Part shown: in pieces, positions 4,721-19,972 of the stretch
How the letters are laid out: every line of letters begins with the position of its first letter
Numbering within the stretch: the first letter of the stretch is position 1
DNA from: a virus
IMG/VR virus record: IMGVR_UViG_3300037509_000067
Span: 30,952 to 94,951 of that record
DNA length: 64,000 bases
Direction: 5' to 3' (one strand)
Made by a program: the position numbers and the translations under genes
The notes under the pieces: generated by a model
The model's database searches: none
What the model was told of the DNA's origin: nothing
What the model saw: the letters and a program-made list of their open reading frames with translations, nothing else

Positions 4721-4950
4721 GCGCACGTTTCCACTGTAGTTTGACATCCTCCACCCCCAAATCGAAGATTATGGGGGTGGATTCCCATCATCACTGACGG
4801 GGTTTCCTGGCTCTACGAGCAACCTTACTCTTCTGGGTTTCCCCATCCAAGCAGCGGGTCATCTCATCCCCAGGCGTTACTTTCCGCCTGCCCGACGGTA
4901 GTTGTGCTAGACCTTGCAATGCTTTGAGCAAGATATTGATGGCAGCATTC
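4721..4950 (-). ncRNA. Predicted omegaRNA/reRNA of TnpB-1 (extent approximate)
   Basis: Inferred from established TnpB biology: scaffold overlaps the tnpB 3' end and right end; guide would be the flank ACTACAGTGGAAACGTGCGC. Confidence 0.45.
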
Positions 4951-6170
4951 GTGTCCCTATCATCTAAATAACCGCAATGTGGGCATTTATGAGTGCGGGT
5001 AGACAAGGACTTCTTAACTTCCTGTCCACAATTGGAACAATCTTGGGAGGTGTAATGAGGGGCAACAGCAATTACTGGCACATCAAATACTTTCCCAAAA
5101 TACTCCAGCCACTGCCTAAACAATGTCCAGCTAGCATCGGATATTGACTTGGCTAGATGATGGTTTTTCACCATATTCCGCACTTTTAGGTCTTCAATGG
5201 CTACCAAGTCTACCGACTGGACAAGCGCCCTTGCAGTCTTTACCGCAAAGTCTTTACGCCGCCTTGATACCTTGAGATGCGTTCTGCCTAAATGCTTGAT
5301 GGCTTTGAGGCGATTCTTTGAATCCTTAGTTCTACGAGATACCCGTTTTTGGGCGCGTTTTAACGCCTTCTTGGCTTTTCTCAAGAACCTGGGGTTCTCT
5401 ATTTTGTTGCCATCAGAGTCAGTGTAGAAATGGTTTAAACCAACGTCTATGCCTACCATTCGATTAGTGGGTTCATGTTTCTCATTGCGTTCTTGGTCGA
5501 TGGAAAACTGAACGTAGTATCCATCGGCTCGACGCACAACACGTACTCGCTTAATCTGCTCTTTTTGGTAAAAGTGCAAATCACGAGTTCCCCACATCCT
5601 AAAAGTTCCAGCTTTAAAGTTATCCCTAAATGTAATGGTTAATCGGTCATCCGATAGCACCCACCCATCAACCTTGTACTCGACTGAGCCATGAGTCTGA
5701 TCTTTTTTAAATCGAGGGAATCCTTTCTTGCCGGGAACTTGCTTCTTGCAATTATCAAAGAACCTAGCAATGACACTCCAAGCTCTCTCGGCACTAGCCT
5801 GACAAGCTTGCGCTGAAAGTTTTTTGCACCATTCAAATTGTTCTCTGAGTACCTTGCAATACTTATTGAGGTCGTACCTATTGACCCCCTTGTTATCCAT
5901 CCAGTAGCGAAGACAGGAATTACGCACAAAACGAGCAGTACGAATCATTTCATCTAAGATGGCGTACTGCTCGTCTGTTCCTCGTAATTTAGCCTCGAAT
6001 ACTAGCATCGTATTTAACCTCTATGTCATAAAGTCTAACATAGGATACGAGCGAGATTGTAAAAAGCGAGTACATTGAGTACACGCTTTTTACCTGGGGT
6101 GTCCATGTACCGTTCGGCTGACGCTCACGGAAGCCTACCCCCAAATCAAGATTATGGGGGCAGTACTATA
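4741..6170 (-). mobile_element. IS200/IS605-family (IS1341-type, tnpB-only) element
   Basis: Right end on the minus strand reads GAAT-hairpin(4751-4780)-TCAA, the IS608-type guide/cleavage pair; a related hairpin sits at 6135-6163; no tnpA. Left boundary approximate. Confidence 0.88.
4791..6008 (-). CDS. tnpB: RNA-guided endonuclease TnpB
   Basis: RuvC motifs GIDVG, AIEDL, DRDTNAAINI; Zn finger CSNC...CPHC. Confidence 0.95.
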   Translation of the reverse strand: MLVFEAKLRGTDEQYAILDEMIRTARFVRNSCLRYWMDNKGVNRYDLNKYCKVLREQFEWCKKLSAQACQASAERAWSVIARFFDNCKKQVPGKKGFPRFKKDQTHGSVEYKVDGWVLSDDRLTITFRDNFKAGTFRMWGTRDLHFYQKEQIKRVRVVRRADGYYVQFSIDQERNEKHEPTNRMVGIDVGLNHFYTDSDGNKIENPRFLRKAKKALKRAQKRVSRRTKDSKNRLKAIKHLGRTHLKVSRRRKDFAVKTARALVQSVDLVAIEDLKVRNMVKNHHLAKSISDASWTLFRQWLEYFGKVFDVPVIAVAPHYTSQDCSNCGQEVKKSLSTRTHKCPHCGYLDDRDTNAAINILLKALQGLAQLPSGRRKVTPGDEMTRCLDGETQKSKVARRARKPRQ

Positions 6171-15727: not shown

Positions 15728-15937
15728 ATGCAGATTCACGACTACTCCCACCTCATTTTCTCTTGCCGCCAACAACTGCACCGCATTGGTCTGACATGGA
15801 AATCCCCTCGCGTCTTGGACTTCTGCGAACGCGCCACGGGGCATCAAGACGCTCATTACCTAAGCGAACGACACCTGCAAATGTTGCTGACCAAATTACA
15901 GTCTGAACCCACCCCACAAAAAGAGGATGTTGCGTGA
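15728..15937 (+). CDS. Hypothetical small protein
   Basis: 69 aa, coupled. Confidence 0.6.
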   Translation: MQIHDYSHLIFSCRQQLHRIGLTWKSPRVLDFCERATGHQDAHYLSERHLQMLLTKLQSEPTPQKEDVA

Positions 15938-16467
15938 TGGCATTACAAGATATTCGCGAATTGAGTGGCACGGCTGAAGTAGGAGCCTTTTATCTGGTTC
16001 CTTGCGTGAAGGTAAAAGACGAGCATCCCCTTGGGGTTCCACATCTTAAACTTGCTTATCAAGGCTTGTGGATGCCTGTATTGGAAGGCGTTCATGAAGA
16101 CCCGGAACTTAAAACTCCCGAATCACACATTCATCCTGACTGGCGGTTTATCCCGGAAGCTGTAATCAAAAGACTTGATCTCCAACTACGAAGGGGCTAC
16201 GCAGGTGCGGTCATTTCGGATCGAGATATCGAAAGTCCTGTGCCCATTCTGAAGCGGAGAAAGATGCTTCGAGCATTCACCATGCCTGACGGTGCGTGCC
16301 ACGCCCTAGAGCCAATCTACGTCGGCAAAAAGTCGGGTTGCTTCACCTGCCCTCATCGCGGTGTGTCACTTGCGGGATTGAAGCCAGATGAGCAAGGCAA
16401 TGTGATTTGCCCTGGACATGGGCTGAAGGTGAATCAGCGAACAGGCTTAGTAGTGAGGAGAGGTTGA
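15934..16467 (+). CDS. Protein with C-terminal Rieske [2Fe-2S]-type motif
   Basis: CPH-x17-CPGH at 16348-16419. Confidence 0.7.
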   Translation: MMALQDIRELSGTAEVGAFYLVPCVKVKDEHPLGVPHLKLAYQGLWMPVLEGVHEDPELKTPESHIHPDWRFIPEAVIKRLDLQLRRGYAGAVISDRDIESPVPILKRRKMLRAFTMPDGACHALEPIYVGKKSGCFTCPHRGVSLAGLKPDEQGNVICPGHGLKVNQRTGLVVRRG

Positions 16468-16468
16468 G

Positions 16469-19400
16469 ATGCAATGCAAAGATACTCCGTCCTCAGTCTC
16501 TTCTCCGGTATTGCCCAACTCTGCTGCGGTGGAATCCAACACGCAGGACTTAGCAACCGATTCCAAGTCAATTGCTTCGTTGAGTTCAACCGATACCGCC
16601 AGCAACTACTTCGTGAGCAGCACCCAGGAACAACCCTCTGGGACGACGTGCGAACCTTCCGAGGATACCCAGGGCAATACTTTGTCGTGGTGGGGGGAAG
16701 CCCTTGCCAAGACAACTCTGACGCCAATTCCAAGGGCAAAGGACTTGCGGGAAGTCGCTCTGGGCTTTGGTGGGAACAGCTCAGAATTATCCAAGAATGC
16801 CGACCCGCAATTGTGTTATGGGAAAACCCCGCAGGATGCCGATCTCTCAAGAAGCGTCCCATCTCTCCTCTTGGAATGGTTCTCTGGTCGCTTGAGTCCA
16901 GCGGGTATCGTTGTCAGTGGCAGTCAATACGAGCTTGTGATGTTGGAGCGCCCCACGAAAGGGATCGCGTCTTTGTTGCTGCCTACTCCGCTTACTTGTT
17001 CGAGCGATTCGGAGTTATACCGTCGCCCTGGTCGGGACAAATTGGAGACGCGATTGAGACTATTACCAACCCCGGTAGCGTCAGATGCCAAGACCAATCG
17101 CATATCCAAAAACGGAGCGAGTCTGGATACGACGCTGAAGCTTTTACCGACTCCAGTAGCCAGGGATCTCAAGGGCAAAGGCTTCAAGGGACAACTGGAG
17201 ACAACCTTAATCCCGCTGATTCCGAAGGGCTATGTCTCACACCCTCGCGTTCGGGAATGGATGCTGGGATTGGAAGAGAACTCAACAGCTATCACCGAGA
17301 CGGATGGTGGAGCGCTAATCCCTTTGATGGGACTGTCGCAATCCCTCAGCGAAGCCTCCCTCATCGAGGCGATCGCATTGCCGCACTTGGAGACACCTGC
17401 ACTCCCCAGCAAGCTGCCGTCTGTTGGCAATACATCGACTACCTCACCCAATGCCTTGAGTCTGGCATGTCTGCAATCAGAACTGACCGAAATTCAGCAG
17501 CAGATTGATGTCGCTGCCACTACCAAAGACGCCTTTCCTAAAAAATCTGCTGAATACAAACTGCTTGATAAGCACGGCAAAGCCGAGTGGAAACGACTTC
17601 AGGATTGCATCAAACGGGCGAATCAACTGGCTGCCTTGCGGGGGAAAGAACTGCTGATGGTGGGTCAGCCAGCGGGAAAGGACGGGTGGCATTATCAATT
17701 CTCATTTCAAGAAAAAACAACAGGAGAAAATACCATGTTTGCAATAGCTAAAACCGCAAAAAAGATCGACGATCTTGCGGCTGAAATTGCCAACCAGCAA
17801 GCCCAGCTACAGCAAATCCATTTGGCATATACCAAGGATGAGCAAGCCTTTAAGGATCGTAAGCTTACGAAAAATAGCCGAGAGTGGAAGAGTGCTATCA
17901 GGGCATATGAATCCACGACCAGTGGAATCAAAAATTTGATAGAACGACTGATGCTCTGTCAATCCCTCCCTGTTGAGACTACTGTCACCCACGAGTGCTA
18001 CGGAGATGGAATACTGAAAGGTTTCTTATTTGATGATCGCGCTGTAGTGATGGCGTCGGTCAGTTTTATTGAAAGAGGCATGATGGATGTTGCTCCTCAC
18101 ACGATCAAAGTAGCAGAGCCTGCTAAAAACACGAAAAAGACCCCACTACCTAAGCCAGTTAGCGTAGGTGATGTCGTGATTCGACCTACGGGTGAGGTTT
18201 ACGGCGAGGTAAAAGTAGTTCAGGTGCGGGGGTTGGCGATACAGCGTGAGGATGAGATCGTCAAGTTGACTTGGGATGAGTTTGAGTTGCTGCGTTTATC
18301 AAAACAAAATGCTGAACAACAAACAACAAGTAATGGCACCGAAATTACAACCGCACAAAATGAGACCGAAAGCGCTGAATCTTCCGCCCCGATTAAGTTG
18401 CACAACCGCACAGAAGAGGGGATTGAGTCACCCTGGATTGTTGGGCAGTGGGTTTGTGGTATCGGTGATTCAGTTGAAATGATTGAGACAAAAATCAATC
18501 AGGGTGAAGTTGAAGATATTTCTGTTGCAAGGATTGACCTTGTTAAGGGCGACGAAGTTGAGGTTACATGGTTAGCAGGACTGGGAGTAAGTCGTCGGAC
18601 TTATTCCACTCGGCATCTCATCTCTATTCGTCGGGAGTTTTGGGCATACCTTGAGGAGGAACTGGCTCAGGCAAAAACAGAACTTGAAGAAGAGATTGAA
18701 GTCACTCGTGAAGTAATAGACGCTTCCGTCGAAAAACTGAGAGCCAATCTTTACAGCTCATGTGAGGTAGTTGAAGAAAAGCCCGAAGCTTCCGGCGAAC
18801 AAAATCAGCTCGAAGTTCCTGAAAGTCTTGCTGTTACTGAAGTTTTCCGGCGAACAGAATCTCCTACCCCTGTCGAAATTGCTGGCACTTCAGATGACGA
18901 CGAGGTGGAGCGGATTGTAGAGAAAATCAAAGACCTCGACCGGAGTCACGAGGTGGAGGTAGTCCGGCACCGGATGGAAGTAGGTCGACAGTTGTTTCGG
19001 CTTCAGCAGGTGTGGAAACCCTCCGAGCAATTCCCCTCTCTGACCGAGTTTTGCACTGTAAAGATAGACAGGCGCTATGGTAAGTCATACCGTAATGAGC
19101 TGATCAAAGCTGCCCAAGCGAATGACTTACTGGCGTCCGGAACTTCCGTTCGGTTGCCCTCTATTAATGCAGCCCGACCGATCACCAAGATGATCAACAA
19201 AGGTGTCGAGCCAGAGAAAATCCAGAAATTGGTTCAGGAGGTGGCTAACACTGGCGAAGTCACTCCAGCTCGTATCGAACAGGCGGCACAAAAGCAAGGG
19301 CTACTACCTCAAAAGGCAGCAAAGCCCATCACCAAAGTCAAACAGGAAGTTGCAGTTACGGGGCAATCACTCGGCTTGTCTGGTCGGGAGCCTCAACAGC

Positions 19401-19972
19401 TGCCTGACATTGAACCCAATGCAGGCATCCCGCCCATAAACGAACCTACAGCTTTGTACAACTGCTGTTCACGAGCTGAGTTGCGGGTATTCTGCAAGGA
19501 ACATACCCAAGAGGCGATCGCTCAACTACGATCATTGGACTGGGAGCGACGCTTTGAACTGCGGGGTATCTGGACGGAATTCGAGGCATGGTTAGCTACT
19601 TGTGCTTTTCACAAGCAGATTGACTCTCAGGGGATACTGACACTAGAGGCGGTGGACAGCAAAGCCAAGATTAAATGGCTTGAGGCTGAAGTTGCGCGGC
19701 TTCAAGGCGAGAATGACGAGCTGAAAAAGAAAGCAAGTCAAGCCACTGAGCTAGAGAATCAATTATCTGTTAGGCGCTCTTGGCTAAATGGCGATCGGTT
19801 CAAGGTGCGGATGGATGCCAATATCAATCCAGATTTGGAGTATCTGCTTTGCCAACGTGGCACCATTCAAGACGTGAATTGCACCAAGGCGATCGCTCAA
19901 ATGGACGCTGACGTAAATATCGAATCACATGAAGCAACGGTGAAGCTGGAATGGCTGGAGCCGATTGCTTGA
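16469..19972 (+). CDS. 1167-aa protein: alternative-frame MTase beta-like region fused to a long charged multi-domain tail
   Basis: Three LLPTP repeats and HPRVREWMLGL (motif IX-like) overlap the MTase; the remainder is an open, protein-like ORF. Confidence 0.8.
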   Translation: MQCKDTPSSVSSPVLPNSAAVESNTQDLATDSKSIASLSSTDTASNYFVSSTQEQPSGTTCEPSEDTQGNTLSWWGEALAKTTLTPIPRAKDLREVALGFGGNSSELSKNADPQLCYGKTPQDADLSRSVPSLLLEWFSGRLSPAGIVVSGSQYELVMLERPTKGIASLLLPTPLTCSSDSELYRRPGRDKLETRLRLLPTPVASDAKTNRISKNGASLDTTLKLLPTPVARDLKGKGFKGQLETTLIPLIPKGYVSHPRVREWMLGLEENSTAITETDGGALIPLMGLSQSLSEASLIEAIALPHLETPALPSKLPSVGNTSTTSPNALSLACLQSELTEIQQQIDVAATTKDAFPKKSAEYKLLDKHGKAEWKRLQDCIKRANQLAALRGKELLMVGQPAGKDGWHYQFSFQEKTTGENTMFAIAKTAKKIDDLAAEIANQQAQLQQIHLAYTKDEQAFKDRKLTKNSREWKSAIRAYESTTSGIKNLIERLMLCQSLPVETTVTHECYGDGILKGFLFDDRAVVMASVSFIERGMMDVAPHTIKVAEPAKNTKKTPLPKPVSVGDVVIRPTGEVYGEVKVVQVRGLAIQREDEIVKLTWDEFELLRLSKQNAEQQTTSNGTEITTAQNETESAESSAPIKLHNRTEEGIESPWIVGQWVCGIGDSVEMIETKINQGEVEDISVARIDLVKGDEVEVTWLAGLGVSRRTYSTRHLISIRREFWAYLEEELAQAKTELEEEIEVTREVIDASVEKLRANLYSSCEVVEEKPEASGEQNQLEVPESLAVTEVFRRTESPTPVEIAGTSDDDEVERIVEKIKDLDRSHEVEVVRHRMEVGRQLFRLQQVWKPSEQFPSLTEFCTVKIDRRYGKSYRNELIKAAQANDLLASGTSVRLPSINAARPITKMINKGVEPEKIQKLVQEVANTGEVTPARIEQAAQKQGLLPQKAAKPITKVKQEVAVTGQSLGLSGREPQQLPDIEPNAGIPPINEPTALYNCCSRAELRVFCKEHTQEAIAQLRSLDWERRFELRGIWTEFEAWLATCAFHKQIDSQGILTLEAVDSKAKIKWLEAEVARLQGENDELKKKASQATELENQLSVRRSWLNGDRFKVRMDANINPDLEYLLCQRGTIQDVNCTKAIAQMDADVNIESHEATVKLEWLEPIA
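16474..17508 (+). CDS. DNA (cytosine-5) methyltransferase, alpha chain
   Basis: Motif I LSLFSGI, IV GGSPCQ, VI WENP, VIII APHERDRVF, X RIAALGD; motif IX not seen in this frame. Confidence 0.88.
   Translation: MQRYSVLSLFSGIAQLCCGGIQHAGLSNRFQVNCFVEFNRYRQQLLREQHPGTTLWDDVRTFRGYPGQYFVVVGGSPCQDNSDANSKGKGLAGSRSGLWWEQLRIIQECRPAIVLWENPAGCRSLKKRPISPLGMVLWSLESSGYRCQWQSIRACDVGAPHERDRVFVAAYSAYLFERFGVIPSPWSGQIGDAIETITNPGSVRCQDQSHIQKRSESGYDAEAFTDSSSQGSQGQRLQGTTGDNLNPADSEGLCLTPSRSGMDAGIGRELNSYHRDGWWSANPFDGTVAIPQRSLPHRGDRIAALGDTCTPQQAAVCWQYIDYLTQCLESGMSAIRTDRNSAAD

Follow-up and report, generated by a model that had tools for sequence, protein, structure and literature searches.

A C5 methyltransferase gene nested in the reading frame of a 1167-residue viral protein, with a probable fused beta subunit

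How does a virus use a stretch of DNA that is open in two frames from almost the same point? The question is raised by a 64,000-nucleotide (nt) stretch, here called the window, which forms part of a 96-kb IMG/VR virus record that is 89% complete by CheckV; a single metagenome-derived virus record stands behind it. A biocrust metagenome run, possibly the source, contains the same DNA. A first-pass annotation, made from the sequence alone, had claimed that two ATG codons 5 nt apart open two frames over the same DNA, and both open reading frames (ORFs) are indeed present, with the longer beginning 5 nt before the shorter, alpha, and ending 2464 nt past its stop:

16474-17508, plus strand: alpha (P0002), C5 DNA methyltransferase catalytic subunit, 344 amino acids (aa)
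16469-19972, plus strand: long ORF (P0001), 1167 aa, in the +1 frame relative to alpha

Because the long (beta) frame starts 5 nt ahead of alpha and runs past its stop, alpha is a nested gene here. We judge it probable that this is a twin-start, two-frame locus in which alpha and a beta subunit, fused as the head of a 1167-residue scaffold, together form a C5 methyltransferase. Both frames are open and are conserved in alternation along the overlap, and the fusion of beta to the downstream protein is itself conserved. From these patterns we infer that both chains are made, that they assemble, and that the long one has a scaffold role. The full 1167-aa product is present as a called protein in a public collection. 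Related loci and proteins are cited below by L and P numbers.

Alpha resembles a C5 methyltransferase in only part of its length. Its residues 5 to 172 match positions 2 to 162 of the 324 in PF00145 (E 6e-25), with no match beyond, and the alpha profile aligns with M.HhaI residues 14 to 183 only, i.e., motifs I to VIII. Its database homologues, for example one from Coleofasciculus and the Nodularia phage vB_NpeS-2AV2 methylase, cover 93 to 98% of its length, the C-terminal GWW...ALGDxCTPQQ block included, and phrog_363 matches aa 2 to 332 (E 5.4e-54). By these matches, alpha is a full-length member of a conserved protein family. Its layout consists of motifs I to VIII, a linker of about 100 aa, and then GWW...motif X, without motif IX; between motif VIII and GWW, the family is gapped and variable in length and sequence. 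Thus, motifs I, IV, VI, and VIII of the PF00145 family stand in a single chain, but the target recognition domain (TRD) and motif IX expected between VIII and X are not in that chain, and the LLPTP and motif IX sequences sit in the +1 frame instead. The motifs that the first-pass annotation had listed for alpha could all be placed by coordinates:

16492-16515, plus strand: motif I, alpha frame
16693-16710, plus strand: motif IV (GGSPCQ), alpha frame
16813-16830, plus strand: motif VI (VLWENP), alpha frame
16945-16986, plus strand: motif VIII (GAPHERDRVFVAAY), alpha frame
17374-17418, plus strand: motif X (RIAALGDTCTPQQAA; ALGDTCTPQQ), alpha frame

The long frame supplies what alpha is missing. 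It runs from an overprinted N-terminal region through the beta module and an overprinted linker into the extension:

16469-16975, plus strand: long-ORF aa 1 to 169, overlying alpha motifs I to VIII; 33% Ser/Thr/Pro, a sequence dictated by alpha
16976-17272, plus strand: beta core, with three LLPTP units (at 16976, 17060, and 17141) and the motif-IX block
17237-17272, plus strand: motif-IX block SHPRVREWMLGL, long-frame aa 257 to 268
17273-17508, plus strand: spacer, long-ORF aa 269 to 346, between beta core and extension and overlying alpha GWW...motif X
17509-19972, plus strand: extension, 821 aa, no curated domain

The three LLPTP repeats (aa 170, 198, and 225) and the motif-IX block had been noted in the first-pass annotation and stand, and no DNA-level tandem repeat lies behind the three units. 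The +1-frame product matches phrog_1008 (E 4.3e-11, aa 50 to 240), a family also matched by the beta frames of L001, L002, and the Nodularia phage. When a profile built from 30 beta cores is aligned by hhalign to the one-piece enzyme P0130, it matches motif IX, just ahead of motif X (95% probability, E 2.4e-8). The same profile matches 36,823 cluster representatives at an E of ≤1e-3, and so the beta module is very common. Pfam found no match in the beta cores of 30 loci, which means that PF00145 is blind to the module. Also, the profile has no match among PDB sequences, and the beta core has no tblastn match at an E of 1e-3 in 50,697 phage records.

Evidence that the +1 frame is coding comes from its lack of stop codons. 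Under a synonymous-codon shuffle that keeps the alpha protein and its codon usage, 3.7 stops are expected in the +1 frame across alpha and none occur (P=0.003); the +2 frame has 16, with 16.2 expected. The stop-free +1 frames of seven further fused loci (L101, L084, L001, L002, L003, L092, and L057) give P values that lie between <0.0005 and 0.017. Split by region, the window by itself yields a P of 0.185 from the start to motif VIII and a P of 0.055 from motif VIII to the end. When 39 loci are taken together, the region from the start to motif VIII holds 98 +1 stops where 178 are expected, compared with 290 and 306 for the +2 frame. Moreover, every locus with a full-length alpha-type gene, 45 in all and drawn from many phyla, has a +1 frame that stays open for 110 to >1,300 codons around the linker, compared with only 2 to 166 codons for the +2 frame. 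In these loci, the +1 frame reads S-(L/W)-(L/W)-PTP right after the motif-VIII position and (LNP)xFxEW(L/M)MGFPxGWT later on. Most loci that match only by their N-terminal half share this LLPTP/motif-IX pattern in the +1 frame.

Conservation also changes frame along the overlap. Among nine cyanobacterial or cyanophage loci, 36 of 36 pairs show greater identity in the alpha frame across motifs I to VIII, and the same 36 show greater identity in the +1 frame across the linker. Contigs of related soil and biocrust metagenomes were aligned to the window, and among the variants listed, all five in motifs I to VIII fall at alpha codon position 3 (beta position 2), all three between GWW and motif X fall at alpha codon position 3, and 11 of the 17 in the linker fall at beta (+1-frame) codon position 3 (P=0.008). 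At the switch, nucleotides 16969 to 16990 encode both the alpha motif-VIII strand (RVFVAAYS) and the first LLPTP, and both are conserved family-wide. As judged from these patterns, dual coding across alpha is real and selection acts on the +1 frame.

The fusion is the rarer feature. In most loci, beta stops 17 to 150 nt ahead of the alpha stop, within the GWW...motif X stretch; an unselected sample of 80 genome loci contains 61 that are nested and three with long fusions, namely, L003 (Chroococcidiopsis), L004 (Desulfobacteraceae), and L057 (Anabaena). A minority, most of them cyanobacterial or cyanophage loci, have a beta that runs stop-free into 300 to 1100 further residues. Such fusions, with the lengths of their long frames, are found in the window (1167 aa), L101 (1128 aa), L084 (a 1365-codon open frame), L001 (1094 aa), L002 (1112 aa), L099/L100 (966 aa), L003, L090, L092, and L093 (about 600 to 700 aa), L004 (about 600 aa), and L057 (988 aa), and the fused loci tested have no stop from motif VIII to the end of alpha. 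The proposal in the first-pass annotation that beta is tethered to a large phage protein has thereby gained comparative support, as at least 12 independent loci have a beta module that reads on, stop-free, into a long and conserved downstream protein. Conservation starts with the first residues past the alpha stop, as evidenced by the alignment of P0001 residues 331 to 613 with P0127 residues 163 to 396 (E 1e-37), and the relatives compared share no conserved start codon at the junction between alpha's end and the extension. The downstream gene keeps to the phase of beta throughout and no stop ever intervenes between the two, which would not be expected of independent genes. L099 has the same extension family (57% identity) behind an alpha/beta pair that is clearly different. 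Among the best 150 matches to the beta-core profile, about 10 representatives are longer than 550 aa, with the core near the front and more than 200 residues after it.

Relatives also depart from this plan in several ways. In P0129 and in L057 (3832-6798, Anabaena cylindrica UHCC 0172), the beta core is internal and the long ORF has alpha in its middle; the 988-codon ORF of L057 reaches about 350 codons upstream of alpha (4920-5771), and its C-terminal part looks ASCH-like by eye. Two loci, L088 (1269-2204) and L093 (4248-5225), have a broken alpha and a long +1 ORF that is still open. The L088 alpha has a stretch of about 45 codons with six stops between motifs I and IV, and the L093 alpha has two stops where its relative P0014 has Trp (DWL and GWW). 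L103 (3657-7350) places a different C5 module ahead of the same extension family. Its 226-aa ORF with motifs I to VIII ends soon after VIII, and a +1 ORF of 1135 aa carries the TRD, IX, and X, followed past X by an RNase HII-like stretch similar to that of P0125/P0126 and, at the C terminus, by one that resembles the Dam end of P0127. This arrangement is either a layout like that of M.AquI or a frameshift.

The recognition region itself varies. The window, like L003 and L002, has three LLPTP units, in its case in a linker of 109 codons, compared with one unit in 60 codons in its closest relatives (L101:5252-5431 and L084:4872-5051), and its beta core (16976-17272) is most like that of the distant L003, with 55% identity versus 43% in the alpha catalytic region. 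Because the window repeats resemble those of L003 and not those of its closest relatives, they suggest that the LLPTP recognition cassette has been swapped among lineages. One metagenome contig lacks 230 nt and runs from 17048 straight to 17279, a weak observation given a side of 24 letters. Another related contig carries three insertions of one base each in a span of 18 nt (net +3) at window positions 16843 to 16861, in the alpha VI-VIII loop, and these locally rewrite both frames.

Where the long protein starts bears on how the two chains would be produced. The elements concerned are as follows:

16455-16463, plus strand: Shine-Dalgarno sequence GAGGAGAGG, common to both starts
16469-16476, plus strand: twin start ATGCAATG, with the long (beta) frame from ATG 16469 and alpha from ATG 16474
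17735-17737, plus strand: internal in-frame ATG at long-frame aa 423, preceded at 8 nt by AGGAG; its Met is conserved in P0125, P0126, and P0127

The start region reads GAGGAGAGG-TTGAG-ATG-CA-ATG, which spaces the Shine-Dalgarno sequence 5 to 8 nt from ATG 16469 and 10 to 13 nt from ATG 16474; the TGA of the upstream gene (15934-16467) ends at 16467, 1 nt ahead of the twin start. Within the first 170 long-frame codons, the sole strong Shine-Dalgarno sequence before any in-frame start is the AGGAG that lies 8 nt ahead of ATG 16469. The sequence (A/G)TGCAATG is common to the window, L101, and L084, so that the long-frame start, once a GTG, falls exactly 5 nt before the alpha ATG in all three. 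A strong shared Shine-Dalgarno sequence is present in two of the three closest loci with the 5-nt spacing; L084 has GAGGAGG at the corresponding place, with AGGAGG 7 nt before its GTG. The paired starts of L001 and L002 are 4 and 17 nt apart, and the +1 frame is open from the alpha start or earlier in 9 of the 11 loci tested, including the 8 closest. Translation of the long protein from 16469 is thus the likelier course. The start is likely rather than proven because the first 170 residues show no discernible constraint at the amino acid level and because the beta frame opens only 100 to 330 nt into alpha in L099, L004, and the Nodularia phage.

These last two points weigh against the reading of a twin-start locus with a fused beta, as do several others. 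An upstream start is not universal, as L099 and L004 have stops in the first 157 codons, and the stop-free first 157 codons of the window, taken alone, are weak evidence (the P of 0.185 given above). No RNA run containing the locus was found. AlphaFold2 models the isolated beta core poorly, with a predicted local distance difference test (pLDDT) score of 62.4 and only the motif-IX helix confident, and Foldseek found no match to this model in the PDB. The window extension has no recognizable domain or enzyme in Pfam, with extension pieces searched at an E of up to 5. Also, alpha could be active by itself. Some of these points speak for a start inside alpha, which would leave the architecture unchanged and beta still fused; one of the weak internal starts up to GTG/ATG/TTG 16937 to 16943 would be used, and the first 157 or so +1 codons would be open yet untranslated. 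Translation of the M.EcoHK31I beta chain can begin at internal Met codons, and the chain can largely do without its N-terminal part (PMC2836561, PMC3404938). However, the starts available in aa 2 to 170 have no good Shine-Dalgarno sequence, and an internal start accounts neither for the start codon kept exactly 5 nt before the alpha ATG nor for a frame open from the alpha start in most loci, and we regard it as unlikely, if worth keeping in mind.

The remaining alternatives change the architecture more deeply. If only the extension were translated, from about 17327 to 17378 or later or from ATG 17735, alpha would act alone or be inactive. In L001 and L002, gene callers did begin the downstream gene near the alpha stop; ATG 17735 combines a good Shine-Dalgarno sequence with a conserved Met; and L088 and L093 keep the long ORF open despite a broken alpha. 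Nevertheless, the better conservation of the +1 frame in the linker holds for pairs in which both loci are fused, the linker variants sit at beta wobble positions, an independent gene is unlikely to be in phase and stop-free with beta in every one of a dozen loci, and coding conservation begins directly past the alpha stop, upstream of 17735. We consider this explanation improbable, although ATG 17735 may give a shorter, extension-only isoform of 745 aa without the beta module. A programmed +1 frameshift after motif VIII would instead produce a chain of catalytic domain, TRD, IX, and extension, and a slip back would give a one-piece enzyme. One-piece enzymes with the order I to VIII, LLPTP repeats, IX, and X do exist (P0130), and in L103 a short I-VIII ORF precedes a +1 ORF that carries TRD-IX-X together with the shared extension family. 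Motif VIII and the first LLPTP use the same nucleotides, however, and therefore one frameshifted chain cannot hold both; such a mechanism also needs neither a +1 frame open from the alpha start nor a start codon with its own Shine-Dalgarno sequence, and M.EcoHK31I works as two separate chains (PMC2836561). A frameshift is accordingly rated more improbable still. An assembly or sequencing artifact, or a decaying pseudogene with two compensating indels, might be suspected of a window from one metagenome-derived record, but the same frame arrangement recurs across many phyla, in dozens of independently assembled sequences as well as in cultured phages, and both frames are under purifying selection. 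Sequencing error and pseudogene were rejected on the ground that the arrangement is conserved in independent assemblies, and the chance left to them is very slight.

Under the preferred reading, that of a twin-start locus with beta fused to a scaffold, one mRNA stretch would be read in two frames from two starts 5 nt apart served by one ribosome-binding site. One frame would yield alpha, with a complete large domain (catalytic and S-adenosylmethionine binding) and a junk linker in place of the small domain. The other would yield the 1167-residue protein, whose first 170 or so residues may be an unconstrained by-product and whose residues 170 to 270 or so would supply the missing small-domain parts, i.e., the LLPTP recognition repeats and motif IX, followed by the spacer and the 820-residue extension. 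Alpha would then dock noncovalently on the beta module, as in M.EcoHK31I, restoring an active enzyme, and the twin starts would couple the synthesis of both chains. Restoration by beta has its precedent in M.EcoHK31I, which needs both chains. With alpha bound to the beta head, cytosine methylation of the phage genome would therefore take place on a large scaffold protein, and in relatives this putative scaffold also appears to bear adenine methylases, RNase HII, and ParB-like or DUF3102-like DNA-binding parts.

What the extension contains is best seen in these relatives. P0125 and P0126 have RNase HII directly after the beta core, and P0126 and P0127 end in Dam. L084 and P0142 have MTS/Eco57I-like and Dam domains as well as a stretch similar to an L002 region in which a ParB-like motif was recognized by eye, a weak ParB-like match occurs in L001, and P0237 has DUF3102 just under its cutoff. 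In P0245 (928 aa), the beta core is followed by Dam (PF05869), and in P0154 (591 aa) it is followed by a D12-class adenine methylase (PF02086, E 2.5e-51). Both have a complete adenine methylase after the beta core, and thus one methylase's recognition subunit is joined to the whole of another methylase.

In the window, the extension has helical and coiled-coil stretches, and two regions can be pointed out:

about 18896-19306, plus strand: helical DUF3102-like region within the extension
19451-19732, plus strand: conserved ALYNCCS...WLATCAFH block with coiled coil, within the extension

Pfam searches of the extension pieces returned only chance-level coiled-coil matches. The coiled-coil and SH3-like segments described by the first-pass annotation found no confirmation, as there is no Pfam domain and a low-confidence model shows long helices at residues 800 to 1167. 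For the same residues, the ESM Atlas offers a weak DUF3102 lead (score 0.84), with no match for aa 345 to 800; an AlphaFold2 model from four sequences has a pLDDT of 51.6, with the helical region at about aa 810 to 950 modeled better, and gave no meaningful Foldseek match against AFDB clusters. The window protein aligns with its relatives to aa 1088 and then ends in a different 79-residue tail. The long proteins of relatives end in Dam; no Dam match was found anywhere in the virus record. When window-type and L003-type extensions are compared by hhalign, the E value is 0.0015 but the probability is 16.6%, which is suggestive only of a common helical domain linking the two. The first-pass annotation had proposed that the tethered part could target or gate methylation or bring it into a replication complex, a role that is conjecture.

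The surroundings of the locus have the character of a replication or early module, with an HTH_36 protein upstream and a ResIII/DEAD helicase and then a terminase downstream. The gene that ends just ahead of the twin start has a weak C-terminal Rieske [2Fe-2S] match (PF00355, E 1.5e-4, aa 138 to 173). A broader idea, which we offer tentatively, is that the long proteins may be cyanophage DNA-modification hubs. Such a hub would set the specificity subunit of a split 5-methylcytosine methylase in a scaffold with N6-methyladenine methylases, RNase HII, and ParB- or DUF3102-like parts, while alpha would be recruited in trans, the twin start would fix the ratio of the chains, and the LLPTP cassette would be exchanged.

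If the reading of two translated frames is true, then the 1035-nt overlap would be among the longest full overlaps of same-strand phage genes, with the smaller and better-known gene nested in the larger. Annotation pipelines treat such loci inconsistently, giving either a 1167-aa ORF or alpha plus a truncated downstream gene. The locus also makes two questions testable, i.e., how one ribosome-binding site serves two start codons 5 nt apart and how a protein tolerates long stretches dictated by another frame.

Several known systems share parts of this arrangement. The closest precedent in layout is M.EcoHK31I, the YGGCCR enzyme of E. coli HK31 reported by Lee, Kam & Shaw in 1995, as summarized in PMC2836561 and PMC3404938. 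Its alpha has motifs I to VIII and X and the predicted TRD, its beta has motif IX and is encoded wholly in another frame of the alpha gene, and both chains are needed (PMC2836561, PMC3404938). The first-pass annotation had cited this precedent correctly, with the difference that the TRD is assigned to alpha in M.EcoHK31I and the LLPTP repeats are in beta here. The window alpha likewise has I to VIII and X without IX, and motif IX lies in the alternative frame; however, the small M.EcoHK31I beta sits entirely inside alpha, whereas the beta frame of the window starts before alpha and ends well after it. This likeness is one of layout, as given in the published descriptions.

Nested phage pairs of phrog_363 and phrog_1008 have the same alpha family, beta family, and +1 relation as the window, but their beta stops 17 to 150 nt before the alpha stop, where the window continues for 821 further codons. 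For instance, Paenibacillus phage Shelly has the gp55 methyltransferase and a gp56 annotated "g55 internal gene," and in Nodularia phage vB_NpeS-2AV2 (gp160), a 206-codon +1 ORF ends inside a 278-codon alpha. M.AquI, from the cyanobacterium Agmenellum quadruplicatum, is another natural two-chain C5 methyltransferase. It is split in the variable region, so that alpha has I to VIII and beta has the rest of the TRD, IX, and X (PMC3404938), but it is not nested, and L103 comes closer to its layout than the window does. The one-piece LLPTP-repeat enzymes (P0130, 711 aa) have the same blocks in the same order, with LNPxFxEWMMG as motif IX, but all in one frame and one chain.

Fusions of methylases to other proteins are known too. 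Phage multidomain methyltransferases, such as ParB-methylase fusions and polyproteins containing Dam or D12, resemble the relatives of the long protein that carry Dam (PF05869), D12 (PF02086), MTS, and ParB-like parts. In those proteins, whole enzymes are joined; here, it is only the C5 recognition subunit, with the catalytic chain separate, and the window copy, unlike its Dam- or D12-bearing relatives, has no second enzyme. Another parallel is engineered: when zinc fingers are joined through a linker to the C terminus of M.EcoHK31I beta, the enzyme stays active and the methylation site is biased by the DNA-binding protein (PMC2836561). Those fusions are artificial and small, while the extension here is natural and 820 aa long. 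If the reading is true, the locus would be nature's own version of the beta-fusion methylases that were engineered for targeted methylation (PMC2836561), and it suggests that phages already tether the recognition subunit of a split methylase to DNA-binding or DNA-modifying scaffolds. A search of the literature, which was not exhaustive, found no description of a fused beta. The nested two-frame alpha/beta layout is already known and widespread, as in phrog_363 with phrog_1008; what appears to be new is the fusion of beta to a large modular protein, which leaves alpha nested in a much larger ORF.

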